This document shows positions 7,757-37,768 of a stretch of DNA of 64,000 nt, piece after piece. The notes beneath the pieces were generated by a model. That model worked only from the letters and a program-made list of their open reading frames with translations. It was not told the DNA's origin and searched no databases. How positions within the stretch are numbered: position 1 is the stretch's first letter; each line of letters starts with the position of its first letter. The stretch is taken from NCBI GenBank assembly GCA_049976445.1, contig JBMFIF010000002.1:5115-69114 (forward strand), in the 5' to 3' direction. The position numbers and the translations under genes were made by a program. This DNA is from Thermoprotei archaeon (GTDB taxonomy: Archaea > Thermoproteota > Thermoprotei > Gearchaeales > WAQG01).

Positions 7757-8431
7757 ATGATGAAAAGTATTAAAAGTCTGTTACATAGTAGAGAGCATGA
7801 TATTTTACGAATGGTAGTGGAACAAACTACGATTGTGCGTGATTCTATCTTTTTACTTGAGGATTTATTTCAGAAATTAAAGAATGGAGATTGGGGATAT
7901 GCGATAGAAAAAAGTTTAGAAATTGCTAGGGAAGAGCATAAGACTGATGTCAAGCGGGAAGAGATAGCTACTAAAATCTTTAAAGAAGCCTATATGCCAG
8001 ATTTCAGAGAAGCAATATTAATGCTAATTGAGAAAATAGATGAAGTAATAGATTCAATAAAGGATACTTCCAGAATTATAACGCAGAGAAAATTTGATGA
8101 AAAAATATTGAATGTTTTAGAGCCGGAGTTCACTGCTTATGTTAAATTATGCGTGAAAGCTGTTGAAACGATGTATTTTTCAATAAGCAAGCTTATTATT
8201 AACATTGATGAATCTATAAAACTTATAAATGAGATTAAATCGTTAGAGGTTCAAGTTGATGAGATGAAAATGTTATTGATAAAGCGCATATATAACATAG
8301 ATGAGAAAACAATCAGCATATTAACACTACTTCAAATTAAGGATGTTATTCTCTTTATGGATAATATTGTTGATAATGCTGAGGATGTCGGTGATGTTCT
8401 TCAACTCTTATACTTTACTATAAAAAGTTAA
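7757..8431 (+). CDS. DUF47 / PhoU-like phosphate transport regulator
   Basis: About 220-aa all-helical protein with the acidic repeats typical of the DUF47 family that normally accompanies PiT transporters. Its 3' end overlaps the convergent PiT gene by 14 nt. Confidence 0.55.
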   Translation: MMKSIKSLLHSREHDILRMVVEQTTIVRDSIFLLEDLFQKLKNGDWGYAIEKSLEIAREEHKTDVKREEIATKIFKEAYMPDFREAILMLIEKIDEVIDSIKDTSRIITQRKFDEKILNVLEPEFTAYVKLCVKAVETMYFSISKLIINIDESIKLINEIKSLEVQVDEMKMLLIKRIYNIDEKTISILTLLQIKDVILFMDNIVDNAEDVGDVLQLLYFTIKS

Positions 8432-9356
8432 GTATCAAATACACGAATAAGGAAATAGTTGTTCCAATAATTGGTGCTATGATCCAGTTCTTAAACATTT
8501 TCATAGAGCTGCCAACACGTAGGCTTCCCTTGGCAAGGTTTATACCGATTAGACTTCCTGTTATTGTTTGAGTTACTGATATTGGTATACCTATTGCTGT
8601 GAAAAATTGTATTATGATATTGGACGAAAGGAGAGCTGAGACAGTTGCTATACGACCTAATCTGCTGAGACGAAAACCAACTTCAATAAATATTCTTTTG
8701 CTCATTATAAGTAATCCTAGTGCACCAGCGATACCATTGATTAATAAAAGTTCAGTATAACCAATCTGTATTGAAGAAACCCTAATAATAGATATAATAA
8801 AACCAATCACATTCGCACCAACCAAATACGAATTATATAAACTCATAAACACGATTAGAAATTTTATCTTAAAACTTAAACCTACATCAGGCTTTAAAAA
8901 TGAATACCTATAAAAGATATTATAAAAAAACGCTGACAAAAATACTGATACTACAACACTAACTATCCATGATATAACAGTAAACAAAAAATAATTCCAA
9001 TTGATCATAAATATTCCTGCTGCTGCAAACCCCGCTATAGAAACTATCACCAATTGAGATACTGAAGTAGGAACACCAATTGCACTCAATAATATAAGAG
9101 TGACTATTGATGAAATCATTATGGATAAGAGCTCATCAGGTTTGCCATTAACTATCAACGTACTACCATAATTAATCATTAACGTTGCGTTTATTATAAC
9201 ACCAGCAAGAATCCCTAAAGCACAAAAAAACACAGCAGTCTTTCTCTTTAAAATGCCTGAACCCATAAGAACAGCCGGATTAATAGCAGAATTGTTTCCA
9301 CCACTTGTTAAGCTTAAAATAATACCCGCAGATAAAATTATAATCTCTTTAATAAT
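8418..9356 (-). CDS. PiT-family inorganic phosphate transporter (start extended to ATT at 9356)
   Basis: Polytopic membrane protein. The C-terminal PiT repeat is GIPISVTQTITGSLIGINLAKG. The N-terminal PiT signature region (SGGNNSAINPAVLMGSG, compare GANDVAN.I...VGSG) lies upstream of the first ATG (9266). Between that ATG and the in-frame TGA at 9363-9365 there is no ATG, GTG or TTG. GAGGTGA at 9363-9369 is followed after 6 nt by ATT. Confidence 0.6.
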   Translation of the reverse strand: MIKEIIILSAGIILSLTSGGNNSAINPAVLMGSGILKRKTAVFFCALGILAGVIINATLMINYGSTLIVNGKPDELLSIMISSIVTLILLSAIGVPTSVSQLVIVSIAGFAAAGIFMINWNYFLFTVISWIVSVVVSVFLSAFFYNIFYRYSFLKPDVGLSFKIKFLIVFMSLYNSYLVGANVIGFIISIIRVSSIQIGYTELLLINGIAGALGLLIMSKRIFIEVGFRLSRLGRIATVSALLSSNIIIQFFTAIGIPISVTQTITGSLIGINLAKGSLRVGSSMKMFKNWIIAPIIGTTISLFVYLILNFL

Positions 9357-9367
9357 TCCTATTCACC

Positions 9368-10051
9368 TCAAATAAAAGGAACTCCATACAATATTGACAT
9401 CAACGCCCTAACTATTATAATCCTCACACCAATCCATGCTGAAATTAACATAAATGTGGCAGCCAGTCTATTAGCACTTAAAATCTCACTTGCAGCATAA
9501 GATTGAAGAACAATACACCAAGTTATCGGTACAACATCAGCAATAAAAACATCTAATATATAATAAACACTATTAGACTGTGCCCATTTAATTAATGCCT
9601 CTTGAAATTGAATAGATAATGGAATACCAGCCTCATAATTGTACTGTATCCTTGGGAGAAAAAGTATTATAATTCCAGAAATTAACCGTCCAAGACCAAG
9701 TAATAACAGCAAATAAAACGAGAACAGCACGAATATCTTATAATACTCGTGCTTTACAGAAACAAGAACAAGAAGCATAGTCGAGAACAATATTAATCCA
9801 GACCCCTCAATAAGATATATAATAAATTCAGAAGAATAATACTGAAAAGTATTACCAAAAATCCCATTAATTTCTATGATCTTCGACGCAGAAGCATACG
9901 ACTTAAACATGGAAAAGAATAGAAATATCATGAAAGCCATCATCGGGCTTAGTAGATCCGGTGCTACTCGTTCTTCCTCCATTAATGCGCGTGGATTATA
10001 AACAATCCTCGCCAACCGCCTTATCATTCGTTTAACGATAATTAATGACAT
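9368..10051 (-). CDS. multi-pass membrane protein (Yip1-like topology)
   Basis: Basic N-terminus followed by about five hydrophobic segments. No catalytic motif recognised. Confidence 0.35.
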   Translation of the reverse strand: MSLIIVKRMIRRLARIVYNPRALMEEERVAPDLLSPMMAFMIFLFFSMFKSYASASKIIEINGIFGNTFQYYSSEFIIYLIEGSGLILFSTMLLVLVSVKHEYYKIFVLFSFYLLLLLGLGRLISGIIILFLPRIQYNYEAGIPLSIQFQEALIKWAQSNSVYYILDVFIADVVPITWCIVLQSYAASEILSANRLAATFMLISAWIGVRIIIVRALMSILYGVPFI

Positions 10052-22399: not shown

Positions 22400-22957
22400 A
22401 TGCTAGTTGAGTTTAAGTTTCATGGAAGAGGCGGTCAAGGTGCCGTGACCGCCGCAGATCTTCTCGTAAAAGCTGCTTATTTGGAAGGCAAATGGGGGCA
22501 ATCATACCCATTCTTTGGTGCTGAACGCAGAGGCGCACCCGTAACCGCATATGCAAGAATTTCAGATAAACCATTAAAAGTTCATTACCAAATTTATGAA
22601 CCTGACGTAGTAGTTGTCTTAGACCCTTCAATACCCAAACTAGTAAACGTAACAAGTGGACTCAAGCAAAACGGCATCATAATAATAAACACTGGAGGAA
22701 GAGAAATAGAATCATTAAAAATAGAACGTGGAACAGTATATACCGTGAACGCAACGGCTATAGCAATAAAACTAAACTTAGTCGTTGCCGGATGGCCAAT
22801 AGTAAATACAGGAATATTAGGCGCCGTAGCAAAAGCAACCAACATAATAAAAATTGAATCACTAGTGAAAGCAATTAAAGACACCTGGAAAGGAAACGCA
22901 GGAGAATCAAACGCTAAAGCAGCACTAATAGCATATGAGGAGGTAACAAAACTATGA
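22400..22957 (+). CDS. porG: pyruvate/2-oxoacid:ferredoxin oxidoreductase gamma subunit
   Basis: FHGRGGQGAVTAADLL N-terminus typical of the gamma subunit. First gene of a gamma-delta-alpha-beta operon. Confidence 0.85.
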   Translation: MLVEFKFHGRGGQGAVTAADLLVKAAYLEGKWGQSYPFFGAERRGAPVTAYARISDKPLKVHYQIYEPDVVVVLDPSIPKLVNVTSGLKQNGIIIINTGGREIESLKIERGTVYTVNATAIAIKLNLVVAGWPIVNTGILGAVAKATNIIKIESLVKAIKDTWKGNAGESNAKAALIAYEEVTKL

Positions 22958-23217
22958 GCATTAAAATACCATTGACACCAATCTCACACCCCACTGTAGG
23001 TGCATCAGGTAAGACTGGCTCATGGAGAACAACAAAACCCATCATTAATTATGATAAATGTAAAGATTGTCTTATATGCTGGATGTACTGCCCCGAAAGC
23101 TCCATAATAAGAACTGAGAAAGATAAAGTATTGATAGAATATGAATACTGTAAAGGTTGTGGAATATGTGCTAATGTCTGTCCATTTAAAGCTATTGATA
23201 TGGTTGAGGAGGAGTGA
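22954..23217 (+). CDS. porD: pyruvate/2-oxoacid:ferredoxin oxidoreductase delta subunit (2x[4Fe-4S] ferredoxin)
   Basis: Two CxxCxxCxxxCP motifs (CKDCLICWMYCP, CKGCGICANVCP). GAGGAGGT SD upstream. 4-nt overlap with porG. Confidence 0.85.
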   Translation: MSIKIPLTPISHPTVGASGKTGSWRTTKPIINYDKCKDCLICWMYCPESSIIRTEKDKVLIEYEYCKGCGICANVCPFKAIDMVEEE

Positions 23218-23220
23218 AAG

Positions 23221-24408
23221 ATGGCACAAACATTAGTCATAAATGGTAATCATGCAGCAGCCTATGGTGCAAAAGTTTCAAAAGTTCAGTTCATATCAGC
23301 ATACCCTATAACACCACAAACTGTTATAGTAGAACGATTAGCGCAAATGGTAGAAAGTGGTGAATTAAACGCAAAATTTATCAGAGTTGAGTCAGAACAC
23401 AGCGCACTCGCAGCATGCATAGGTGCCGCCTCAGCAGGACTTAGAACATTCACAGCAACATCCTCACATGGATTAGCATACATGCATGAAATGATCATTT
23501 GGGCTGCTGGTGCACGATTACCAATAGTAATGCCAGTAGTAACACGAGCTTTCGCACCACCATGGAGTATCTGGGATGAACACACAGACATACTATTAGA
23601 AAGAGATACCGGATGGATAGTATTTATGGCTGAAAACAATCAAGAAGTCTTCGATACAATAATACAAGCTTACAAGATTGCAGAAAACGAAAACGTTCTC
23701 TTACCAGTTATGATAGGAATGGATGCATTCATACTCTCACACACAACAACACCAGTCGAGATACCAGACCAAGAACTTATAGATAACTTCCTCACGCAAG
23801 AGAGCAAAAGACCATTTATCCTAGACCCAAACAACCCGATAACACATGGAAGCCTTACATACCCAGAATGGTATATGGAATTCAGATACCTTCTTTATAA
23901 AGCAATGATAAATGCAAAATCAGTAATAAAAGATACTTCAAACCAATGGGCAAAACTTACCGGAAAATACCATGGAGATCTGATAGATTGTTACAAGTGC
24001 GCAGATGCCGATGTAAACATAATAACAATAGGAGCACCATCCGGTGATGCAAAAGAGGCTGCTGACATACTTAGATCAGAAGGATATAGAACAGGTGTGA
24101 TAAGATTACGCGTGATAAGACCATTTCCATCAGAAGAACTTAGGCAAGCAGCACATAATTCAAAAGTTCTCATAGTAGTAGATAGAAACTTATCACCAGG
24201 AATAGGCGGAATACTATTAAACGAAGTAAAAGCAGCACTACAAACGATGAAAAAACAACCCTTAGTACATGGGTTCATAGCAGGATTAGGAGGACGCGAT
24301 ATAACACTCCAAAACTTTATATCAATGTTCAAGAGAGGTTACGAAATACTAGAAAAAGGTGAAGAGCCAGGTACAGAATGGATCAACCTTAGAAAGGAGG
24401 TGCTCTAA
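23221..24408 (+). CDS. porA: pyruvate/2-oxoacid:ferredoxin oxidoreductase alpha subunit
   Basis: GNHAAAYGA ... ISAYPITPQT N-terminal signature. About 395 aa. GAGGAGG SD upstream. Confidence 0.85.
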   Translation: MAQTLVINGNHAAAYGAKVSKVQFISAYPITPQTVIVERLAQMVESGELNAKFIRVESEHSALAACIGAASAGLRTFTATSSHGLAYMHEMIIWAAGARLPIVMPVVTRAFAPPWSIWDEHTDILLERDTGWIVFMAENNQEVFDTIIQAYKIAENENVLLPVMIGMDAFILSHTTTPVEIPDQELIDNFLTQESKRPFILDPNNPITHGSLTYPEWYMEFRYLLYKAMINAKSVIKDTSNQWAKLTGKYHGDLIDCYKCADADVNIITIGAPSGDAKEAADILRSEGYRTGVIRLRVIRPFPSEELRQAAHNSKVLIVVDRNLSPGIGGILLNEVKAALQTMKKQPLVHGFIAGLGGRDITLQNFISMFKRGYEILEKGEEPGTEWINLRKEVL

Positions 24409-25308
24409 ATTACATCAATAAGAGAAATTCCTAGAGAAGAATACCTATTACCAGGCACAGCAGCATGCCCAGGATGTGGTTTTACAATAGGATTAAGAAT
24501 GGCACTAAAAGCATTAGGACCAAAAGTAATAATGGTTGTACCAGCAGGATGCACCTCAATAATACAAAGCCCATATCCATACGTTTCTATAGGAGTACCA
24601 CTATTAAACATCGCATTTGCTGCAGCAGCATCAACAGCATCAGGAATAGCAGCAGCACTAGAATACAAAGGGGATAAGGAAACCACAGTCCTAGTATGGG
24701 CAGGAGATGGAGGAACAGCAGACATAGGAATACAAGCGCTCAGCGGAGCAGCAGAAAGGGGCGATAATTTCATTTACATATGCTATGACAATGAAGCATA
24801 CATGAATACTGGAATACAAAGAAGCGGAGCAACACCATTCGGAGCATGGACAACAACCACATGGACTGGCAAAAAAGAATTCAAAAAAGACATCCCCATG
24901 ATTATGGCAGCACATAAAATACCTTACATTGCAACAGCATCAATAGCATACCCAATAGACTTCTACGATAAACTAAAGAAAGCCAAAACATACAAAGGAT
25001 TAAAATACTTACACATACACGCACCATGTCCACCAGGCTGGAAAATCCCAACAGACAAAACAGTAGAAATAGCAAAACTCGCAGTAGAAACAGGATTATG
25101 GGTACTCTACGAAATAGAAAACGGAGAGTTTAGACTCACAGGCCCTAGCAAAATACTCATAGACAAAAACAGAAGAAAATCAATAGAACAATACATCAAA
25201 ATACAAGGAAGATTCTCACACATGACAGACGAAGATATAAAAACACTCCAAGAATGGATAGATAAACAATGGGAACAATATACAGAAATGCTTAAACAAC
25301 GAAAATAA
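24409..25308 (+). CDS. porB: pyruvate/2-oxoacid:ferredoxin oxidoreductase beta subunit (TPP-binding); start placed at ATT 24409
   Basis: TPP motif GDGGTADIG. The conserved N-terminal LPGTAACPGCG (Fe-S ligand cysteines) lies between the porA TAA (24406-24408) and the first ATG (24499). That stretch has no ATG, GTG or TTG. GGAGGTG at 24396-24402 is followed after 6 nt by ATT. Confidence 0.8.
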   Translation: MTSIREIPREEYLLPGTAACPGCGFTIGLRMALKALGPKVIMVVPAGCTSIIQSPYPYVSIGVPLLNIAFAAAASTASGIAAALEYKGDKETTVLVWAGDGGTADIGIQALSGAAERGDNFIYICYDNEAYMNTGIQRSGATPFGAWTTTTWTGKKEFKKDIPMIMAAHKIPYIATASIAYPIDFYDKLKKAKTYKGLKYLHIHAPCPPGWKIPTDKTVEIAKLAVETGLWVLYEIENGEFRLTGPSKILIDKNRRKSIEQYIKIQGRFSHMTDEDIKTLQEWIDKQWEQYTEMLKQRK

Positions 25309-25571: not shown

Positions 25572-25952
25572 TTACATACTAAGACTTAATAATGTTAATT
25601 CATCAATTGTTTGATTAAACAATGCCTCATAAAGACCAGCGACCCTCTCTAAAATAATAATACCTTTAGTTAACACGTTATACCTAAACTTTACTTGCAA
25701 CTCATCTATTGGAACAACATCAAAAGGAATTCTTAAAAACTCTTCTAATCTAGCAGAAAGTAATGCATAATATTTAAACTCCTTATTCATAGAATAAATG
25801 GCAATATCAACATCCCTAAAACTTTTTAACTCCACAAAACTACCAAATATGATTGCTAGAAGCACATCTTTTTCACTCTCAAAAAACTCTCTAATGGAAT
25901 TCATGACAGTTTTCTTATCAATCCTATAATACTTAAATCTTGAAAGCATCAC
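25572..25952 (-). CDS. minimal nucleotidyltransferase (MNT) antitoxin-type protein
   Basis: GSFVELKSFRDVDIAIY is the GS-x(n)-DxD NTase motif. Overlaps the upstream HEPN gene by 20 nt. Confidence 0.8.
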   Translation of the reverse strand: MMLSRFKYYRIDKKTVMNSIREFFESEKDVLLAIIFGSFVELKSFRDVDIAIYSMNKEFKYYALLSARLEEFLRIPFDVVPIDELQVKFRYNVLTKGIIILERVAGLYEALFNQTIDELTLLSLSM

Positions 25953-26355
25953 TAATCCTCCTAATAAAATTCATAACATTAACAAAATCACTTCTAATAT
26001 TCTCATATATCTTCTCGTCAATAATAATCCAATATCTATGAACAAGTAAATTTCGCAACTTAAACATGCTCACAAAATCCTTATACTCTTCATCAATCAA
26101 AAGACCCTTATCTCTTAAAATATTTAAGGCATGAATTGAAGATTCAGGTTCAACATTATAAAATCTCCTAACAATGTGAAGAGCTAAAGCACTCAAAGCT
26201 TCAGCAATCACAATGATATGATATCTAACTGCATACCTCTCAGTAAGACTTATTTCTTCAAACGACTTACTAACATAATCACTAATAATATTTATAGATT
26301 CCATAATATCTTTAATAAGTTTCTTAATAAAATCTCTATTAACATCCACTCTCAA
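25933..26355 (-). CDS. HEPN (DUF86) toxin-type protein
   Basis: RNLLVHRYW is the R-x4-H HEPN motif. About 140 aa. Paired with the MNT gene. Confidence 0.8.
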   Translation of the reverse strand: MRVDVNRDFIKKLIKDIMESINIISDYVSKSFEEISLTERYAVRYHIIVIAEALSALALHIVRRFYNVEPESSIHALNILRDKGLLIDEEYKDFVSMFKLRNLLVHRYWIIIDEKIYENIRSDFVNVMNFIRRISDAFKI

Positions 26356-26433
26356 TTCACTCCAAGAAAACTAAGAAACCACAATTTAAAAAGATATTCA
26401 ACAAACTCTCATAAAAACCAAAATAAATAAAAA

Positions 26434-26529
26434 TTAACGGGAATAAGCAAGACGCTCATACAAAAAAGAAGAAAACCAACAGAGCAATACATAAAGATAC
26501 AAGGCGTGTTCTCAAGCATGACTAATGAT
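26434..26529 (+). pseudogene. ghost fragment homologous to the 3' end of porB
   Basis: Translates to LTGISKTLIQKRRKPTEQYIKIQGVFSSMTND, compared with real porB LTGPSKILIDKNRRKSIEQYIKIQGRFSHMTDE (25145-25243). Hand alignment gives roughly 70 percent nucleotide identity over about 96 nt with one codon gap. Confidence 0.55.
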
Positions 26530-26672
26530 AAAAGAAGGACAAACTTCACCCTTCAGGGTGGAGTAAATTTAAATACTCAGACACACTATACTCTACAGTA
26601 GCACCCATAAAGGGGTGTAACCCTCAAGACCTCGGGGAACCCTCGCACCTTCAGGGCGGGGAAGAGGTCAGA
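26526..26672 (+). repeat. tandem/nested IS200/IS605 right-end-like relics (tnpB-tail motif)
   Basis: tgataaaagaaggacaaacttcacccttcagggtgg (26526-26561) and ccttcagggcggggaagaggtcaga (26648-26672) are separated by about 86 nt. Joined, they equal the single copy at 35195-35243 on the opposite strand. Confidence 0.5.
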
Positions 26673-26983: not shown

Positions 26984-28093
26984 CTAAATGAGTTCGTTAA
27001 TTTTAGTAGTAAGTCTTTTATATTCATCTTCAATTTTAAGTGCTAGTTCATCTGGGTTTAATTTCATCTTTATTTGTGCTATTAATGCTGTTCCGCCTGC
27101 TCCTACTCCTTCCTTCACATAACCATTTTCGTACGCTTTAAGTCCATAAAATTTTGATTTCGAAAAATTTAGTGTTGTGGCAATTATTGGTATTTTTTCG
27201 ATTTGGCTTACTAAACCTATAATATCGGAACTCCTGTCTTCTATAATCCATTTAGTGGTTCCAATTGCTACCTTGTCTAAATTAATATTCTTATGTTTCA
27301 ATAGTGCTAGCACTGAAGACATTTGAGTTCCACCGGCTAATAATACATGAGAGTTTATTTTTACTATGCCCTCAGTTAATCCTGCCATAGCTATCATCAC
27401 AGGATCACCAACTTTGCTCGCAGCAAGTAAAGGATTTTCTTTAGCTTGCTTGATACTTAGGTTAGCATTTTTTAAGCTCTCCTCAGCTATCCTTATTTTT
27501 AGATCATGCGGGTTATTAGCATCTGCACTACTTATTTTGTATCTAGCGTCATAACCAAGGGCTAAGAGAAAAGTTAGAGTGGTTGTAGTGCCACCTGGTA
27601 TACTTTCACCGATGAGAACAGTATCAGCTAATAATCCCAACTCTTTACCAAAAAGTTTAGCATTTTCATATATTGTGATCGCATCATCATATTTCATGGC
27701 GTTTCCAGTCCTTATATCATTACCGACAACACCACCTACATCTATGAAAGGAACTTTAGGTTTTACATAACAACCAGCGTTTACTACAAAGAAGGGTATG
27801 TTGAGTAGTTGTAATACTGTCCTAGTTATTATTGCGGGTGTTGGAATACCATCAGGCGTTGTTGGTATTACGTTGAAACTGATAACCTTACCATAAAAAA
27901 GATACTCTATATCACCAGTCGGAGTATATAGTGTTGCTTCGGGGTTAGCCCCAGCTATACTAAGACCAGGAATTTTTGATGTTAATGTTGATCCTATTAC
28001 ATAGACAGCTAGCAGGTTAGATTTTTCTATACGTTTAGTGAATTGTTCTCCTTTTTCAGGCATGTACGCATACATAATACTCATACAAACCAC
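26984..28093 (-). CDS. cobT: archaeal CobT-like protein (UPF0284; nicotinate-nucleotide:dimethylbenzimidazole phosphoribosyltransferase analogue)
   Basis: GSTLTSKIPGLSIAGANPEATLYTPTGDIEYL and ESIPGGTTT match the archaeal CobT-type family pattern. Located in the cobamide cluster. Confidence 0.6.
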   Translation of the reverse strand: MVCMSIMYAYMPEKGEQFTKRIEKSNLLAVYVIGSTLTSKIPGLSIAGANPEATLYTPTGDIEYLFYGKVISFNVIPTTPDGIPTPAIITRTVLQLLNIPFFVVNAGCYVKPKVPFIDVGGVVGNDIRTGNAMKYDDAITIYENAKLFGKELGLLADTVLIGESIPGGTTTTLTFLLALGYDARYKISSADANNPHDLKIRIAEESLKNANLSIKQAKENPLLAASKVGDPVMIAMAGLTEGIVKINSHVLLAGGTQMSSVLALLKHKNINLDKVAIGTTKWIIEDRSSDIIGLVSQIEKIPIIATTLNFSKSKFYGLKAYENGYVKEGVGAGGTALIAQIKMKLNPDELALKIEDEYKRLTTKINELI

Positions 28094-29051: not shown

Positions 29052-29123
29052 ATCAAGTATTTAAACTTTTTGTATCCTCATGAAGATTAAACAATATGTC
29101 AGAAACGTTAGCTTTAAATTCTT

Positions 29124-29138
29124 TGGTTGGATTATCCA
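29124..29138. promoter_or_regulatory. candidate operator copy 2 (TGGATTATCCA palindrome) at the btuF-like promoter/start
   Basis: Identical 15-mer tggttggattatcca, downstream of the TATA-like ctttaaatt (about 29111-29119). It overlaps the annotated TTG start at 29127; the in-frame GTG at 29145 is an alternative leaderless start. Confidence 0.4.
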
Positions 29139-30383
29139 GACTTGGTGAATAACTTGAGTGATAGGAATACTCGTTACTTATTAAGTCTAATAATTATAAT
29201 AGTGATAGTACTGGGAGTTACTATACCTCTTTATATGGAAATTAATTCTTTAAGAGATGAAATTTCTAGATTACGTAATGATATATCAGCACTTAGTTTA
29301 AGTTCTAAGCAACTTACCTCACAGTTTAATAGTAGTCTCACACAATTAAATGCAGCTTATAAGAGCCTTGAAGATAGGTATAATAAATTATTTCAACAGT
29401 ATTCATCATTGTCTGAAAGTATTAAGTATCCTTTTACAATTACTGATGCTCTTGGAAGAACTGTAACGATAGTTTCAAGGCCAGTTCGAGTTATAAGTAC
29501 GGCACCTAGTGTGACAGAAATGCTTTTTGCTATAAATGCAGAAAAACTTATTGTAGGTGTTGATAAGTATTCAGATTATCCGCCTACAGTAAAAGATTTA
29601 GTTAAAAATAGTACAATTAAGCTGGTTGGTGGTTTTTCGACTGTTGATGTGGAGGCTATTGTAGCACTAAAGCCTGATATTGTATTTATGACACCGGGCG
29701 TGCAAACACCTTTCGTATATAGGTTAGCAGAACTTGGACTAACCGTCGTCGCTTTAAAGGAAGATAGTATATCGGATGTGTTTGATTCGATAATGCTCGT
29801 AGGGAGAATTCTTGATAAGATTGATGGGGCATTAAACGTTGTCGCATCTATGAAGTCTAAAATCACTTATGCGTTCTCAAAGGTTGAGAATTATATTAAA
29901 TCTGTTAATATTACAAGGGTTAAAGTGTATTGGGAAGTATGGCCTGAACCAATATATACCGTTGGTTCACAAAATTTTATAAATGATATAATTACACTAG
30001 CAGGAGGGGTTAATATTTTTGGTGATATAAAATCAGGCTATCCAGTCGTAAGTTCTGAGGAAGTTATAAACAAAACTCCTGATGTTATAATAACAACTGA
30101 TCATGGTGGGGTTTATGGATCGCCACAGGATGTATTAAATATGATCAGGAATAGAACTGGATGGAATGTAATACCAGCTATAAAAAGTAATAGAGTTTAT
30201 GTGTTAACGGGCCAGTTTGGGTCTATGTTTATAAGGCCTGGTCCAAGAGTTGCAGATGCAATTCTTCAACTTGCCGTAATATTATATCCTGAGGCATTTG
30301 GTATGAGTAAAATCATGATACCGAACATAATAAGCACATCGTTTAACGTTACAACATATATTAGTTTGTTAATTGTTTCATAA
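29127..30383 (+). CDS. BtuF/FhuD-type (class III) substrate-binding protein, membrane-anchored, with N-terminal coiled coil
   Basis: N-terminal TM segment, a heptad-like Ser/Leu-rich stretch, then a periplasmic-binding-protein core (RVISTAPSVTEMLFAI, ALKPDIVFM, TPDVIITT). Followed by FecCD permease and ATPase genes. Confidence 0.7.
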   Translation: MDYPDLVNNLSDRNTRYLLSLIIIIVIVLGVTIPLYMEINSLRDEISRLRNDISALSLSSKQLTSQFNSSLTQLNAAYKSLEDRYNKLFQQYSSLSESIKYPFTITDALGRTVTIVSRPVRVISTAPSVTEMLFAINAEKLIVGVDKYSDYPPTVKDLVKNSTIKLVGGFSTVDVEAIVALKPDIVFMTPGVQTPFVYRLAELGLTVVALKEDSISDVFDSIMLVGRILDKIDGALNVVASMKSKITYAFSKVENYIKSVNITRVKVYWEVWPEPIYTVGSQNFINDIITLAGGVNIFGDIKSGYPVVSSEEVINKTPDVIITTDHGGVYGSPQDVLNMIRNRTGWNVIPAIKSNRVYVLTGQFGSMFIRPGPRVADAILQLAVILYPEAFGMSKIMIPNIISTSFNVTTYISLLIVS

Positions 30384-31410
30384 TACAATGAGCAGTAATT
30401 ATATACAAAGGAGATATTCCCGCCTTATTTTTTCTGTTATTGTTCTAATCATGTTAGTAGGAGTTTTAAGTATATTATCCATTAGTGTTGGTTCTGCGTT
30501 TATAAATCTGCCGGAATCTTTAAAAGCTTTGGTTGATTCTGATAACGTTGATGTATATACAAGAATTATAATATGGGAGATTAGAGTTCCTAGGACATTA
30601 AGCGCTATTTTTATAGGAATGTTGATGGCTTTAGCTGGGCTTTTTATGCAGACTGTTACTCTGAATCCTCTTGCTGATCCTTATTTAACAGGTATGGCTT
30701 CTGGTGCACTGTTAGGTGTTAGTATAACTATTGTGCTTTCACCTTTAATCGTTAGTCCTTATGTTATAGTTATCTCAGCGTTCTTTGGAGCCTTGTGCGC
30801 CATGATATTAACACTTCTAATTGCAAGTAAATTTCGCTTAGATCCAATAGGACTCATACTGGGAGGTGTTGCAGTCTCTATGATTTTTTACTCATTTTCT
30901 GCGATACTTCAGTTTATTGGAGGTGAAAAGATGGTTATGATAATTATATGGAGTCTTGGAAGCTTGAGTACTGCATCATGGTCAAGAACATGGTTTACTG
31001 GCATTACTGCAATAATTCTTATACCCCTTTCTATAATTATGTACAAATCGTTGAATGCTTTATTACTTGGTGATGAGAATGCACAAAGTATTGGTGTAAG
31101 TCCGAAGTTAACACGATCATTTTCCTTGCTAATATCCTCAATTGCCACGGCAATCTCAGTGTCAATGTTTGGTGTGATAGGCTTTGTTGGATTAGTAGCA
31201 CCTCATTTAGCACGTCTCGCATTAAGGAGCGGTGATCATTTAATAGTCATACCAGTCACATGTCTTGTTGGATCCGCTATCATGCTTTTAAGTGATGTGA
31301 TAGCTAGAATAATAGGTTCTCCTGGAGAATTTCCGTTAACTCCTATAATGAGTTTAATTGGTGCTCCGCTACTTATTTATTTAATGAGTAGGAGGTTTAA
31401 AAATGGTTAA
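30373..31410 (+). CDS. btuC: FecCD/BtuC-family ABC permease
   Basis: About 10-TM protein with a typical FecCD pattern (RVPRTLSAIFIGMLMALAGLFMQTVTLNPLADPYLTG ... GAPLLIYLM). Confidence 0.85.
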   Translation: MFHNTMSSNYIQRRYSRLIFSVIVLIMLVGVLSILSISVGSAFINLPESLKALVDSDNVDVYTRIIIWEIRVPRTLSAIFIGMLMALAGLFMQTVTLNPLADPYLTGMASGALLGVSITIVLSPLIVSPYVIVISAFFGALCAMILTLLIASKFRLDPIGLILGGVAVSMIFYSFSAILQFIGGEKMVMIIIWSLGSLSTASWSRTWFTGITAIILIPLSIIMYKSLNALLLGDENAQSIGVSPKLTRSFSLLISSIATAISVSMFGVIGFVGLVAPHLARLALRSGDHLIVIPVTCLVGSAIMLLSDVIARIIGSPGEFPLTPIMSLIGAPLLIYLMSRRFKNG

Positions 31411-32179
31411 ACTAATCATAGATAATCTTTCTGTTAATTATGGTTCAATAAAAGCATTAGAAGATATTAGTATAAAACTTGACAAAGGCATGATGGTATC
31501 AATAATAGGACCTAACGGTTCTGGAAAGACAACACTTCTCAGATCTATAGCAAGAATAGTAAAACCAGTAAAAGGTGTAATCTATATTGATGGAAAAAAT
31601 ACTAACGAACTATCATTAAAAGATCTAGCTCATCATGTATCATACACATCTACATTGAAAGTAAAAGAGGGTTTTGAACTCACAGTGGGCGATATAGTTT
31701 TTATGGGTAGATATCCAAGAACTGGATTTATGATGAGTCATACTGATGAAAGAATTGTGAACGATGTATTAAATAAGTTTCGCATTACTCATTTAATGAA
31801 TAGAAAAATAGATGAGCTTAGCGATGGTGAACGGCAAAAAACCTTTTTAGCAAGAGCCTTAGCTCAAGAATCAGAAATAATACTTGTAGATGAACCATTA
31901 GCGCATCTTGATCTAAAAGCACAACTTGAAGTCTTAAAAATACTTAAAAATGAAGCAAACGATGGAAAGCTTGTAATAATGACCTCACACGAGATAGACT
32001 TACCGATTAAATACAGTGATGTATTAATAGTAATGAAAAAAGGAGAAATATTAGCAGCAGGAAAACCTAATGAAATACTAACAGAAAAAATAATAGAAAA
32101 TGCTTATGGTGTTAAATGTCGTATAATCAAAGATAAAGAATATTCACTTATAGTACTTCTTGACACACTCAGTGATTAG
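31403..32179 (+). CDS. btuD: ABC ATPase (BtuD/FepC type)
   Basis: Walker A GPNGSGKTT, signature LSDGERQ, Walker B IILVDEP. AGGAGGT SD 6 nt upstream of the ATG. Confidence 0.85.
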   Translation: MVKLIIDNLSVNYGSIKALEDISIKLDKGMMVSIIGPNGSGKTTLLRSIARIVKPVKGVIYIDGKNTNELSLKDLAHHVSYTSTLKVKEGFELTVGDIVFMGRYPRTGFMMSHTDERIVNDVLNKFRITHLMNRKIDELSDGERQKTFLARALAQESEIILVDEPLAHLDLKAQLEVLKILKNEANDGKLVIMTSHEIDLPIKYSDVLIVMKKGEILAAGKPNEILTEKIIENAYGVKCRIIKDKEYSLIVLLDTLSD

Positions 32180-32181
32180 TA

Positions 32182-33282
32182 ATGAAGGAATTAAAACAAC
32201 CAGTACACGGTGGTAGAGTATGGGATGCAGCAGAAAAACTCAACATAAACGTTGAAAAGATTATAGATTTTAGTACAAATACAAATCCATTAGGACCTCC
32301 AAAACAATTAATAACAACATTAATAAAAAATATTAACACTGTTGCTTATTATCCAGATCCTGACTATAGAACATTAAGGATGGAATTGGCAAGGTTTTAT
32401 AACATTAATGAAGAGAATATTATAGTTGGTAATGGTGCAACTGAACTTATACATCTATTTGCACAAACATTCATCTCAGAAAATGACAGAGTAATAATAC
32501 CAATACCCACGTTTGAAGAATACCAATATGCATCACAGAAAGTTAGCGCAAGAATTATTTATATAAAGTCAAAAAACAATATGCACATAAACATAGACAA
32601 AATAATATCAAAAATGAACAATACAAAGGTCATATTTGTATGTAATCCAAATAACCCAACAGGAATATTAGAAAAACAAGAAGATATACTCAATCTAATA
32701 AAAGAGGCTAATAAGAGAAACGTACTAGTTTTTCTTGATGAAAGCTTTATGGATCTAGTAGTTACAAAAAAGCCGTACACGTTAATAAGATCAGTAAACA
32801 TGTTTGATAATCTTTTTATAATAAGATCACTAACAAAAATCTTCAGCATACCCGGATTAAGGATAGGTTTTGGTGTATCTTCAAAGTACTTAATAAAAGA
32901 ACTTAATAAACATAAAATACCATGGAATGTCTCAACACTTATTGAAAAAACTATTCCAGAAGCACTAAAATATGCAAGACAATATCTAAAAACATCAAGA
33001 AAAATAATCAAACAAGAAAGAAACTATATGATAAGTGAACTATCGAAAATTGATGGTATTAAAGTAATAAGCGGTGATGCTAATTTTCTCTTCATAGATA
33101 TAAGTGAAACTGGACTCACATCATCAGAATTAGCAGATCAATTAATAAAACATCGTATACTAATACGAGATTGTAGCACTTTTACAGGACTGAACAACTC
33201 GTACATAAGAATAGCAATAAAGAAACACCGAGAAAACATACTACTAATAAATGCTCTGAAAACAATAGTGATAAGAAAATGA
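32182..33282 (+). CDS. cobD: L-threonine-O-3-phosphate decarboxylase (CobD; class I/II aminotransferase fold)
   Basis: N-terminal VHGGRVW, HisC-like PLP fold (SLTKIFSIPGLRIGF carries the PLP Lys). Context directly upstream of cbiB. Confidence 0.7.
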   Translation: MKELKQPVHGGRVWDAAEKLNINVEKIIDFSTNTNPLGPPKQLITTLIKNINTVAYYPDPDYRTLRMELARFYNINEENIIVGNGATELIHLFAQTFISENDRVIIPIPTFEEYQYASQKVSARIIYIKSKNNMHINIDKIISKMNNTKVIFVCNPNNPTGILEKQEDILNLIKEANKRNVLVFLDESFMDLVVTKKPYTLIRSVNMFDNLFIIRSLTKIFSIPGLRIGFGVSSKYLIKELNKHKIPWNVSTLIEKTIPEALKYARQYLKTSRKIIKQERNYMISELSKIDGIKVISGDANFLFIDISETGLTSSELADQLIKHRILIRDCSTFTGLNNSYIRIAIKKHRENILLINALKTIVIRK

Positions 33283-34235
33283 ACTCCTTCCACACAAGTA
33301 TAATAATTTTAGTATTAGCAGTACTCATAGATATATTATTTGGAGAACCTCCACTCAAAGTTCATCCAGTAGTTTGGGTTGGTAGATTAATTAAATATTT
33401 GGAACGTTACTGTCATGGAGGAAGCACTCAACTAGAGAAAATTAAAGGTACGATGATGGCTATATCAGTAATTATAATATCCATCACAATAACATACATC
33501 GCTTTAAAAATAGTACAGTCTTATCTCGGTTTATATGGATACATAATAATAGCATCTATAATATTCAAAACAACTTTTTCAATACGATCCATGAAAGATC
33601 ACATAAAACCAATAGCTATCTCGTACGAGAAAAATAATAAAGAAAAGGCCAAAGTATTATTGTCACGAGTCGTAAGAAGAAATCCCTGGCAACTCACTGA
33701 TGAACAAATAATCTCAGCTGCAATAGAGACGACAGCAGAAGGCATAGTAGATGGTATAACATCAGCATTGTTCTATTACAGTATACTTGGAATACCAGGT
33801 GCAATAATGCAACGAGTTATAAACACATTGGACTCAATGGTTGGGTATAAAGATGAATATTATAAGAATGTAGGATGGTTCTCAGCAAAATTAGATACAA
33901 TAATAAACTTTATACCAGCTCGTCTCACAGCAATTACTATAGTACTGGCATCATTAATTTTAAAAAAAGATTATAAATTAAGCTTTAAAATAGCATTAAC
34001 AGACCATAAAAATACTGAAAGTCTTAATGCGGGATGGCCAATGTCAGCAATGGCAGGCGCTCTAAGAATACAACTAGAAAAACCCGGACATTACAAACTT
34101 GGGATTCCAATGCAAAAACTAAAGCCAGAACTCATATACGATGCATTAAACATAATGTATACATCAACAACACTTTTCATAATAACAATAATAATTCCTA
34201 TACTTATTCTCTTTAATATCTACCTATTTTTATAA
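33279..34235 (+). CDS. cbiB: adenosylcobinamide-phosphate synthase CbiB
   Basis: DILFGEPPLKVHPVVWVGRLI N-terminal signature and polytopic membrane topology. Confidence 0.8.
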   Translation: MNSFHTSIIILVLAVLIDILFGEPPLKVHPVVWVGRLIKYLERYCHGGSTQLEKIKGTMMAISVIIISITITYIALKIVQSYLGLYGYIIIASIIFKTTFSIRSMKDHIKPIAISYEKNNKEKAKVLLSRVVRRNPWQLTDEQIISAAIETTAEGIVDGITSALFYYSILGIPGAIMQRVINTLDSMVGYKDEYYKNVGWFSAKLDTIINFIPARLTAITIVLASLILKKDYKLSFKIALTDHKNTESLNAGWPMSAMAGALRIQLEKPGHYKLGIPMQKLKPELIYDALNIMYTSTTLFIITIIIPILILFNIYLFL

Positions 34236-34342
34236 TTAAAAAACTTACCAGAAAGCACGTGTTCACAAAATGAAATGATCTGATTTTTCGTTATCATTTA
34301 GTTATTTGCGTTAATTTTAAAATATAAGTTTTATAAATTATT

Positions 34343-35158
34343 TTGATAAAAATGTGGTATTTAGATACTCTAGACCGTAAACCTTTAGGTAGAACAAGAG
34401 AAACTGTACCTGCGATCGGTATTGGAACATGGGCTGTAAGGGACTTTAATAAAGCCGAAACAGCTTTAGTTAAAGCAGTAGAGCTTGGGCTTAATATGAT
34501 AGATACTGCAGAAATGTACCACACAGAAGAACTTGTAGGTAAAGTTATCAAAAAGGTTGGTAAAGAGAACGTTTTCATAACAACTAAACTTTTACCTGAA
34601 CACTTTTCAGATGTTGACAATGCATTAAATGCAGCTAAATTAAGCCTTTCAAGATTAGGAATTAATATTGTCGATTTAATTCTAATACACTGGCCTAGAA
34701 CCTTCACACCCATCGAAAAACAAGTCAGAATACTAGAGGCAATAGCCAACGCAGGGTATTCCAGATACATAGGTGTGAGTAATTTTAATGTTAACCAGCT
34801 TTCAAAAGCAACACAATCAACCAAAAAACATGAAATAGTAGTAAACCAAGTAAAATATAGCGTGTTAGATCGAACAATAGAGGATAACTTATTATTATAT
34901 GCTATAGAGCATGGTATAACAATACAAGCATACACACCATTAGAGAAAGGTAAGGTTTCAAACAATAAAATTTTATCTGAAATAGGTAAAAAATACAATA
35001 AGACACCAACACAAGTAGCATTAAATTATCTTATCTCTAACCCCATGGTGACTGCAATACCAAAAACAGAAAAAATCGAAAGAGTATTAGAATTTAAAGG
35101 ATCATTAGGATGGAGACTTATGAAAGAGGACATAGAATTCATTAAGAGCAAAATTTAA
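34343..35158 (+). CDS. aldo/keto reductase
   Basis: AKR blocks IGIGTW, IDTAEMYHTEELVG, LILIHWP, IGVSNF. About 271 aa. Confidence 0.8.
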   Translation: MIKMWYLDTLDRKPLGRTRETVPAIGIGTWAVRDFNKAETALVKAVELGLNMIDTAEMYHTEELVGKVIKKVGKENVFITTKLLPEHFSDVDNALNAAKLSLSRLGINIVDLILIHWPRTFTPIEKQVRILEAIANAGYSRYIGVSNFNVNQLSKATQSTKKHEIVVNQVKYSVLDRTIEDNLLLYAIEHGITIQAYTPLEKGKVSNNKILSEIGKKYNKTPTQVALNYLISNPMVTAIPKTEKIERVLEFKGSLGWRLMKEDIEFIKSKI

Positions 35159-35194
35159 CCCTAAAAACCTTTAGCTTATCCAGCTATCCTTTCT

Positions 35195-35243
35195 CTGACC
35201 TCTTCCCCACCCTGAAGGGCGAAGTTTGTCCTTCTTTTATCAA
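35195..35243 (-). repeat. IS200/IS605 right-end-like relic, inverted copy of the 26.5-kb relic
   Basis: The reverse complement reads tgataaaagaaggacaaacttcgcccttcagggtggggaagaggtcaga. This matches 26526-26561 plus 26648-26672 almost base for base. Confidence 0.5.
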
Positions 35244-35298
35244 CGAAGAGTGAAGCTTAAATAAATTTTTCAAATAGAAGAATCGTAAGTGAACAAAA

Positions 35299-36411
35299 AT
35301 GAATAACACTCAAAACGTAAAAATCTATTTTAAAGATAATACACTCATCATCGAATCAGCATCAGAAATGGAAGTACTGAGTAGTGCTGTATTCAATGGT
35401 GGAAGACAAAAAGCACAATATATAATAAACTATAAGGTTTCTAAAACCTTTGATGATCCAAAACCAGCACTATACCTAAAAAATGTAATAGAAAAACTAG
35501 GATTACCTCACGATTCAACAATAGGATTAATGACAGCTGCTGATGTTCACAATGCTTCAATAATTAATGAAGGACCAGTTACAGCAATAATTACTGCAGG
35601 CCTTTCAAATACAGCAACCGCCGGTGATGATATAGCAGTACAAAACATCGGAACGATTAATATGATTATTATAGTAAATGGATTACTAAACGAAAACGCT
35701 TTTGTAGATGCAATAATAACTGCCACAGAAGCAAAAACAGTAGCACTTGATCAATTAGATATTATAAGTAGAGTATCAAGAAAAAGAGCAACAGGAACAA
35801 CAACTGATTCTATAGTAATAGCATGCACACAACAAGGTGAAAGATATGAATATGCAGGCACAGCGACAAAAATAGGTAATATGATAGCTAAAAGTGTCAT
35901 AAAAGGTGTTTTAGAAGCCATAAAACTCCAGGAAAATATAACATCATCTAGACCAATATTAAAAAGATTAGAAGAAAGAGGAATTACACTAAAGGATCTC
36001 GTAGAAACGGGTATGGAACTTTATATACATCACCCAAGCATGGGAACAATAGAGAACGCAAGAAAAACATTAGAAGAAATATTGATAGAATCAATGAATG
36101 ATATAAATGTTGCATCATTAATTATTGCCGGAATAAGGATAGAGGAGGAAGGAAGAAAGGGTTTAATACCTGGTCTTACAAGAGAAGAATTTGAAAAAGA
36201 TCCTGTAAATCTAGTGGCTGATGAGTTAATAGGAATGGCTATAGCTGATTACATAGCAGGTTCAAGAGGTATTTTTGAATATGTCAGGTTTGATAGAATA
36301 AAACCAGGCATTATCAGAAATCTAGGGCCCTTCATGGATGACATAATCGGAGCATTAATAGGTGGAGCGTCATCACTCATGTATACAAAATTACTTAAAA
36401 AACAGAAGTGA
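35299..36411 (+). CDS. cbiZ: adenosylcobinamide amidohydrolase CbiZ fused to a C-terminal CobZ/PgpA-like domain (CbiS-like architecture)
   Basis: CbiZ blocks LSSAVFNGG, IGLMTAADV, GTINMIIIV and AIITATEAKTVAL lie in residues 1 to about 210. An extra C-terminal domain of about 150 aa (GLIPGLTREEFEKDPVNLVADELIGMAIADYIAG) follows, as in the archaeal fusion with alpha-ribazole-phosphate phosphatase. Confidence 0.6.
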   Translation: MNNTQNVKIYFKDNTLIIESASEMEVLSSAVFNGGRQKAQYIINYKVSKTFDDPKPALYLKNVIEKLGLPHDSTIGLMTAADVHNASIINEGPVTAIITAGLSNTATAGDDIAVQNIGTINMIIIVNGLLNENAFVDAIITATEAKTVALDQLDIISRVSRKRATGTTTDSIVIACTQQGERYEYAGTATKIGNMIAKSVIKGVLEAIKLQENITSSRPILKRLEERGITLKDLVETGMELYIHHPSMGTIENARKTLEEILIESMNDINVASLIIAGIRIEEEGRKGLIPGLTREEFEKDPVNLVADELIGMAIADYIAGSRGIFEYVRFDRIKPGIIRNLGPFMDDIIGALIGGASSLMYTKLLKKQK

Positions 36412-37151
36412 TCAAGTTGATAAAACAATTAAAAGCCCTCTTATCATTTCTTACAATAATACCAGTAAAAGAGGAACACGATCTAAAAACAATTGCAGAA
36501 GGTATACACCTCTTTCCATTGATAGGATTTTTCACCGGAATCCTAACAGGATTTATAGCATACCTTATCTCAAGAGTATACCTAAGTCTTTTAACGGGAA
36601 TAATAGCAGTATCATTCCTGGAATTTATAACAGGACTTCACCATTTTGACGCATTGTTAGATTTTGGTGATGGTATTATGGCTAAAACAACACCAGAAAA
36701 GAAAATAGAAATTATGCATGATAAACAAACAGGAAGCGGCGGATTCTGGTTAGGTATTACAATAATTGGAATAAAAATATTTTCAATATCACAATTACAT
36801 GGATTACAACTCTTTACAGCAATAATTCTTTCAGAAATCTCCGCAAAACTTTCAATGGTAATAGGAATGTGGCTAGGCAACCCAGCTTACCCCTCTAGTA
36901 CAGCAGTACCGTTCATAGAAGAAGCACATAAAAACCCTAAAAAACCATTAATAGCTCTTATATTCTCATTATTCATAGCATTACTCTTCATGACAGAAGG
37001 AATATTAATGATAATTACAAGCATAATAGTGGCAGTAATCATTGAACATCTATCACAAAAACATTTTAAAGGTATAACTGGCGATGTATTGGGATCCATG
37101 GATGAAATAACATCAGCTCTCTCATTATTAGTATTAGTGAGCATAATATGA
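36408..37151 (+). CDS. cobS: cobalamin-5'-phosphate (adenosylcobinamide-GDP ribazoletransferase) synthase CobS
   Basis: LSFLTIIPV N-terminal motif, HHFDALLDFGD, membrane topology. 4-nt overlaps with both neighbours. Confidence 0.75.
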   Translation: MIKLIKQLKALLSFLTIIPVKEEHDLKTIAEGIHLFPLIGFFTGILTGFIAYLISRVYLSLLTGIIAVSFLEFITGLHHFDALLDFGDGIMAKTTPEKKIEIMHDKQTGSGGFWLGITIIGIKIFSISQLHGLQLFTAIILSEISAKLSMVIGMWLGNPAYPSSTAVPFIEEAHKNPKKPLIALIFSLFIALLFMTEGILMIITSIIVAVIIEHLSQKHFKGITGDVLGSMDEITSALSLLVLVSII

Positions 37152-37768
37152 TAAAAATTAAAGCTCTAATCATGGCAGGAGGAAAAGCAACCAGAATGAA
37201 TAACATAGAAAAACCCCTCATAAAAATATGCGGAACCACAATGATAGAAAGAATACTCAATGCACTAAAGAACACTAAGTGCATAGAAGATGTATATATA
37301 ACAACAAGTAAAAATACGAAAAACACAGAAATCCTACTTAAAACCTTAGGATATAAAACAATAACAACTTCAGGAGAAGATTATGTAGAAGACTTAAAAA
37401 ACACAATTATAAAACTAAACATAAAAGATCCCATATTAGTATTACCATCCGATCTACCATTAATAACACCAAATACAATAGAACAATTAATCAATATTTA
37501 CATACAAAACAACTCTCCACCAACAACGACGTTTTACATACCATTGCAACTACTAAAAACAAAAATACGAACAAACTACATAGAACAAATAAATAATATA
37601 AAAGTAATACCATCTGGCATTAGTATAATAAAAGGATCATACATTACGCAAAATGTAATACCGCAAATAAACATAATAGTCGAAAACACAGAATTAAGCG
37701 TTAACGTGAATACGTTATTAGATATAAAAATTGCACAATCAATTTTATGCAAAAGAAATAATAAGTAG
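37148..37768 (+). CDS. cobY: adenosylcobinamide-phosphate guanylyltransferase CobY (MobA-like NTP transferase)
   Basis: ALIMAGGKATRM nucleotide-binding N-terminus. About 200 aa. Position after cobS. Confidence 0.6.
   Translation: MIKIKALIMAGGKATRMNNIEKPLIKICGTTMIERILNALKNTKCIEDVYITTSKNTKNTEILLKTLGYKTITTSGEDYVEDLKNTIIKLNIKDPILVLPSDLPLITPNTIEQLINIYIQNNSPPTTTFYIPLQLLKTKIRTNYIEQINNIKVIPSGISIIKGSYITQNVIPQINIIVENTELSVNVNTLLDIKIAQSILCKRNNK

Follow-up and report, generated by a model that had tools for sequence, protein, structure and literature searches.

A probable AUU start codon of porB in the porGDAB operon of an uncultured hot-spring archaeon

The gene porB, which encodes the beta subunit of a ferredoxin-dependent 2-oxoacid oxidoreductase in an uncultured hot-spring archaeon, probably initiates translation at an AUU codon. 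The gene was studied in a 64,000-nt stretch of DNA, referred to here as the window, and all positions are given in window coordinates. The proposed start codon, ATT at 24409, immediately follows the stop codon of porA. AUU initiation had been put forward as the likeliest reading in an earlier inspection of the sequence (the original prediction), and is now backed by the ATG that related lineages carry in its place, by six assemblies of the species, by the CxGC-containing segment encoded ahead of the first ATG, and by purifying selection on the gene.

As judged by its genes and their domains, the operon is an ordinary porGDAB that encodes a pyruvate (2-oxoacid):ferredoxin oxidoreductase. It has the gene order and domain set of archaeal four-subunit pyruvate:ferredoxin oxidoreductases (PFOR) and matches the structurally characterized beta subunits 9bt4_C and 5c4i_C, and differs from them only in the start codon of porB. 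The genes porG, porD, and porA are positioned directly 5' of porB, and this order is kept in relatives. The genes porG and porD overlap by 4 nt (ATGA), and the identical PorA protein is present in four other contigs. The operon and the porA-porB junction contain the following features:

22400-22957, plus strand: porG (gamma subunit), the first gene of porGDAB (Pfam PF01558 POR, E 6e-39)
22954-23217, plus strand: porD (delta subunit, 2x[4Fe-4S] ferredoxin-like; Pfam Fer4 families and open reading frame coordinates)
23221-24408, plus strand: porA (alpha subunit, 395 aa), with its TAA stop codon at 24406-24408 (Pfam POR_N, PFOR_II, and Transketolase_C)
24396-24402, plus strand: Shine-Dalgarno (SD) motif GGAGGTG within the 3' end of porA, common to all related lineages
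24409-24411, plus strand: ATT, proposed initiation codon of porB, derived from ATG by a G to T change at 24411
24409-25308, plus strand: full-length porB (beta subunit), 299 codons plus stop (Pfam TPP_enzyme_C and homologue alignments)
24427-24429, plus strand: second in-frame ATT, 24 nt from the SD motif, start of a 293-aa NCBI model and the less likely start
24466-24477, plus strand: codons of Cys20-Pro-Gly-Cys23 (CxGC, two ligands of the proximal [4Fe-4S] cluster), 5' of the first ATG
24499-24501, plus strand: ATG of Met31, the first canonical start, giving a 269-aa product without Cys20 and Cys23 (open reading frame list and JGI calls)

The junction reads AGGAGGTGCTC followed by TAA ATT ACA TCA; a longer read of it is AGAAAGGAGGTGCTC followed by TAA ATT ACA TCA ATA AGA. 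The frame of porB extends over 299 codons from stop to stop, and the first ATG, GTG, or TTG in it is codon 31 at position 24499. The sequence agrees with the original prediction in the positions of TAA (24406-24408) and ATT (24409) and in the lack of ATG, GTG, and TTG from the 30 codons. The complete SD motif GGAGGTG reported at 24396-24402 was likewise confirmed, separated from the ATT by a six-nucleotide spacer (CTCTAA). The SD-led canonical genes of the window have spacings of 5-9 nt between motif and start codon, a range that includes that of porB, and the strong-SD model mRNA of P. abyssi, GGAGGUG-N6-AUG, has the same spacing as porB (PMC6237735). The spacings at btuD and at the gene of the phosphate transporter PiT, which had been described as identical to that of porB, are 5 and 7 nt on the anchor used here, and are therefore similar rather than the same. 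The distance from the porA stop codon to the porB ATT is 0 nt, and because of this spacing the two genes are in one frame. The earlier observation that they share a frame interrupted by a single TAA is true, and follows automatically from the spacing.

Alignments with homologues show that the 30 codons upstream of the first ATG encode indispensable PorB sequence. The porB translation matches PF02775, the TPP-binding C-terminal domain, above the gathering score (E 1.5e-18). In phmmer alignments, residues 1-287 of the 299-aa query match the beta subunit of oxalate oxidoreductase 5c4i_C from the PDB (E 6e-75), and residues 10-273 match the PFOR beta subunit 9bt4_C (E 4e-73); about half of the aligned residues are identical in each case. 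The conservation of residues 1-9 extends as far as 5c4i_C (ItSIre.P.EEY). The protein is 94% identical to the 299-aa homologue P0001 over 100% of its length, and the closest database homologues, 295-308 aa long, have their N-termini at the same position as PorB of the window.

The upstream codons also specify ligands of the iron-sulfur cluster. Cys20, Cys23, Cys48, and Cys207 all align with cluster-ligand cysteines of 5c4i_C and 9bt4_C, in which the CxGC motif is CAGC. The motif ligates the proximal [4Fe-4S] cluster in the 2-oxoacid:ferredoxin oxidoreductase (OFOR) family, as described for the structure of S. tokodaii OFOR (PMC5020499). Since the codons of Cys20 and Cys23 lie 5' of that of Met31, a product beginning at Met31 would be without two of the four cluster ligands, and the full set holds only if translation starts upstream of Met31. 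The structure alignments agree with the earlier claim that a conserved PorB segment with cluster cysteines lies between the porA stop codon and the first ATG. As a base rate, genome contigs were scanned for PorB, and the matches listed include 75 loci of other species, relatives with identities of at most 62%. A canonical start codon is positioned 15-30 codons before the first cysteine in all 75 of these loci.

The ATT is not an artifact of a single assembly. Searches for exact matches to PorA and to the truncated PorB retrieved five contigs of the same species besides the window: three metagenome-assembled genomes (MAGs) from NCBI, all named 'Thermoprotei archaeon' (GCA_049700375.1, GCA_049973215.1, and GCA_049970455.1), and two JGI metagenomes (3300039096 and 3300019821). 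Identity to the window is 99.85-99.93% for these five contigs, each of which has scattered single-nucleotide polymorphisms (SNPs) of its own, indicating that they are independent haplotypes. The junction reads TAA ATT in the window and in all five others (6/6). An error of sequencing or assembly would have to change only one base of the start codon, as ATT is a single substitution away from ATG. However, the five further assemblies come from other samples and projects and differ from the window elsewhere, and all of them contain ATT. Such an error was rejected as an explanation, and its probability is negligible.

Comparison with relatives shows that the ATT, which all six assemblies of the species share, is a derived replacement of an ancestral ATG. 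The codon equivalent to 24409 is ATG in three related lineages, represented by eight contigs (L001-L004 and L091-L094). The first lineage is the clade of P0001 (L001-L004, L091, and L092), which has the 94%-identical PorB and a nucleotide identity of about 84%; the second is GCA_038881895.1 (L093), and the third is represented by the ENA contig L094. In each of the three, the motif GGAGGTG recurs unchanged and a TAA or TGA stands directly before the ATG. A pattern scan of metagenomes across the junction returned two contigs only, both from an ATG sister lineage. The occurrence of ATG in three sister lineages places the G to T change at 24411 within the window species. The original prediction had set a canonical start in relatives as a test against AUU initiation. 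Such a start was found. Of the two causes it was said to imply, a sequencing error is excluded; the other, a recent mutation, accounts for the origin of the AUU start and does not contradict it, and the ATG of the relatives pins its position.

The position of the start codon differs among public gene models. Of the same-species NCBI models of porB, one has 299 aa and starts at the codon corresponding to 24409, and two have 293 aa and start at the one corresponding to 24427. Two contigs with the same porB sequence are thus annotated with different ATT starts, at 4207-5088 in L005 (293 aa) and at 4189-5088 in L006 (299 aa). Prodigal-type calls at JGI give a porB product of 269 aa from Met31; besides L005 and L006, a third record and those of JGI have porB shortened to 269 aa or to a partial call of 182 aa. 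The ATT start of porB is already in public NCBI annotation, where it is placed inconsistently. The earlier claim that standard gene callers miss the start holds for the Prodigal-type calls at JGI, but not for NCBI.

It is conceivable that translation of porB begins at a near-cognate codon further downstream, ATA at 24418 or ATT at 24427, with the loss of the first three to six residues and the retention of all the cysteine ligands. Two NCBI proteins, MGB9728401.1 and MGC9164256.1, begin at the equivalent of 24427, and the CxGC motif matters more than residues 1-6. However, the two codons are separated from the SD motif by 15 and 24 nt, outside the range of 5-9 nt, the ancestral ATG was located exactly at 24409, and the conservation up to 5c4i_C includes the residues that would be lost. 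The third same-species NCBI record uses 24409, and the choice of 24427 appears to be one of annotation rather than evidence. A downstream start is quite improbable.

The alternative named by the original prediction, readthrough of the porA UAA into an alpha-beta fusion that would supply the beta function, found no support. It draws on the shared frame of porA and porB with one stop codon between them, which the 0-nt spacing produces automatically. The relatives retain a TAA or TGA together with an ATG of their own, and in-frame porA-porB fusions occur at none of the 75 other porB loci among the matches listed. No stable RNA structure was detected around or after the stop codon (z = 0.44), and when the junction RNA was folded with the ATT and with the ATG allele, neither differed from shuffled sequence. 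UAA is, moreover, generally the least leaky of the stop codons. Readthrough is highly unlikely as the source of PorB. Natural alpha-beta fusions were also sought at ten loci with open frames upstream of porB (171-477 codons before the first cysteine); the frames have no similarity to PorA and belong to genomes of 58-71% GC content, and these candidates were rejected. A frameshift from the in-frame GTG at 24400 was rejected as well, because CTC TAA follows it directly and the N-terminus of PorB is encoded in no other frame.

For initiation at AUU 24409, the following mechanism may be proposed. The initiator Met-tRNA would pair with AUU despite the mismatch at the third position, and the strong GGAGGUG six nucleotides upstream would place ribosomes at the codon. 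Ribosomes that end translation at the UAA of porA would adjoin the AUU, which could result in translational coupling or termination-reinitiation. Initiation at the AUU would yield full-length PorB with the N-terminus (M)TSIREIPR, probably at a rate below that from AUG. The strength of the SD motif and the coupling would together, we infer, make AUU efficient enough. Termination-reinitiation in archaea needs an overlap or a very short distance between genes, and the gene pairs concerned encode subunits of heteromeric complexes more often than expected (PMC10666635). The genes porA and porB are 0 nt apart and encode subunits of one complex, and coupling could thus help a weak start codon. By analogy, termination-reinitiation at the porA-porB junction is plausible. 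The gene pairs studied in Haloferax volcanii and E. coli (PMC6728339, PMC10666635) resemble porA-porB in that co-directed genes for subunits of a complex have almost no intergenic distance and the SD motif lies inside the upstream gene. Those pairs, in contrast, start at canonical codons, and their usual overlap is 4 nt or 1 nt, whereas porA and porB have a distance of 0 nt, a near-cognate restart codon, and a putative coupling.

Sequence divergence argues for the continued function of the gene, since porA and porB are still under purifying selection on the window lineage. The pairwise ratios of non-synonymous to synonymous substitution rates (dN/dS) of porB are 0.06-0.09 between the window and its relatives and 0.035-0.064 among the ATG lineages. 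With the start codon left out, 20 synonymous and 10 non-synonymous changes in porA and porB were assigned to the window branch, which rejects neutrality (binomial p = 2.5e-6); the branch of the ENA contig L094 has 32 synonymous and 6 non-synonymous changes. Codons 2-30 contain no non-synonymous differences and three to four synonymous differences from L094 and L093. The sole SNP of porB within the species is synonymous, and neither a frameshift nor an internal stop codon was found in the four por genes.

Several observations weigh against AUU initiation. In the in-vitro system of Sulfolobus solfataricus, aIF1 causes a model mRNA with AUU to be rejected by the 30S complex (PMC4705826; PMC6237735), and efficient use of AUU is thus not expected by default in a crenarchaeon. 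Only one switch from AUG to AUU was found among 61,358 reconstructed AUG starts (1/61,358; PMC5622118), a rarity which suggests that such switches are normally deleterious. The AUU is not conserved in the relatives, and no compensatory change is visible near the porB start in comparison with them. The non-synonymous share of changes is higher on the window branch than on the L094 branch, a difference that is not significant (Fisher p = 0.15), and the substitutions in the 29 N-terminal codons are too few to prove constraint after the ATT mutation.

The main rival of AUU initiation is a recent loss of function, in which porB would be a young null allele or strong hypomorph, mostly silenced or producing only the 269-aa protein from Met31, with decay just beginning. 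The use of ATG by all relatives, the discrimination of aIF1 against AUU in vitro, the near-absence of retained AUG to AUU switches, and the slightly, not significantly, raised non-synonymous share are in line with such a loss. So is the rearrangement history of the 3' end of porB in the window species, and the selection data cannot date the mutation within the branch. However, all six independent haplotypes carry the ATT allele, the four por genes are free of frameshifts and stop codons, and the substitutions on the window branch reject neutrality. Codons 2-30 are without non-synonymous change relative to L094 and L093, the strong SD motif is still intact, and the reading frame was kept intact through the replacement of the 3' end. 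A young loss of function is unlikely, and initiation of porB at AUU 24409 is the probable reading of the locus.

The region downstream of porB contains a relic of a porB 3' end, 38 aa long (26431-26541, plus strand), about 1.1 kb from the intact gene. No other paralogous por genes are present in the window. The DNA of the relic shares 85% identity with porB of L094, but only 79% with that of the window. The intact gene is a mosaic: over its 5' 360 nt it most resembles L094, and over the remainder the L001 clade. Between porB and the relic lies a HepT/MNT-like toxin-antitoxin pair (25572-26355, minus strand). The arrangement suggests that an insertion or recombination replaced and displaced the original 3' end of porB.

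A second gene of the window is a candidate for AUU initiation:

8418-9362 (start region 9350-9370), minus strand: PiT phosphate transporter (Pfam PHO4)

The PiT frame contains no ATG, GTG, or TTG before the conserved N-terminus EIIIL...TSGGNNSA, which comprises a helix and a motif. In the start region, an in-frame TGA is followed by ATA GGA ATT ATT, and GAGGTGA is positioned 6-7 nt before the first ATT. The start of PiT is likely the ATT at 9356, to go by the arrangement of these elements. More distant PiT homologues have a methionine a few residues 5' of the same helix. The arrangement GAGGTGA-N6-ATT ATT is kept in two related species, in GCA_038881895.1 (contig L096) and, with a 1-nt deletion, in the Logan contig L095. 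The deletion in L095 (at approximately 1500-1530), relative to the window and L096, brings an upstream ATG and the GTG of GAGGTG into the PiT frame. The L095 lineage may use a canonical PiT start, while its relatives would rely on ATT. The NCBI models of PiT begin at ATA 9362 in the window species and at a downstream TTG in L096.

The screen of the window covered all frames with at least 11 start-less codons and near-cognate codons behind SD motifs, and the candidates were compared with Pfam. No further genes without a canonical start were found in the window; porB and PiT alone qualify, two of approximately 60 genes. It is tempting to regard the tolerance of AUU behind a strong SD motif as a regular feature of the lineage, on the strength of the recently acquired AUU of porB and of the SD-N6-ATT ATT start of PiT, the latter shared by at least two or three species, but this generalization is tentative and rather doubtful.

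Near-cognate start codons are a known phenomenon, and porB reveals no new mechanism or system. In E. coli, pcnB is an AUU-initiated gene. The E. coli gene infC, encoding initiation factor IF3, resembles porB as interpreted here: it is functional, its only plausible start is an AUU behind an SD motif, and the codon is decoded by the initiator tRNA (PMC4705826). However, the AUU of infC is conserved and serves the autoregulation of IF3, whereas that of porB is a lineage-specific replacement of ATG without sign of regulation. Since three related lineages have ATG, the AUU of porB is not conserved and by that criterion is not a regulatory AUU of the infC type. The factor that polices start codons also differs, being IF3 in the bacterial case of infC and aIF1 in the archaeal case of porB. 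A parallel in annotation is the Asgard tubulin gene atubA (PMC13394414), which likewise comes from an archaeal MAG and has a deposited model that is short at the N-terminus; an inferred upstream ATT, with a ribosome-binding site at a plausible distance, restores the conserved N-terminus. The atubA gene encodes another protein in another phylum, and porB adds the ATG of three sister lineages and the six haplotypes.

Elsewhere in the window, a cobalamin uptake and salvage cluster occupies 29118-37768 (plus strand). It begins with genes for a periplasmic binding protein, a FecCD permease, and an ABC ATPase (btuFCD-like), which are followed by those for an aminotransferase, CobD/CbiB, an aldo-keto reductase, CbiZ-PgpA, CobS, and a MobA-like nucleotidyltransferase. 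An open reading frame of 369 aa at 26984-28093 (minus strand) is conserved in the species and has no Pfam match at E <= 1e-5.

The assignment of the porB start has consequences for annotation, as the truncation of PorB by Prodigal-type callers removes 30 residues and two iron-sulfur ligands. Between the conflicting NCBI models, the comparative evidence fixes the start at 24409. The gene porB represents a clean, polarised, natural switch from ATG to ATT that has been retained in an essential-looking gene of archaeal central metabolism. Together, porB and PiT are two candidates for studies of the in-vivo stringency of archaeal start selection and of its rescue by SD strength or termination-reinitiation. 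Should AUU tolerance prove to be regular in this lineage, it would conflict with what Sulfolobus shows in vitro and would point to a relaxed aIF1-type discrimination or to efficient near-cognate reinitiation in a crenarchaeon.

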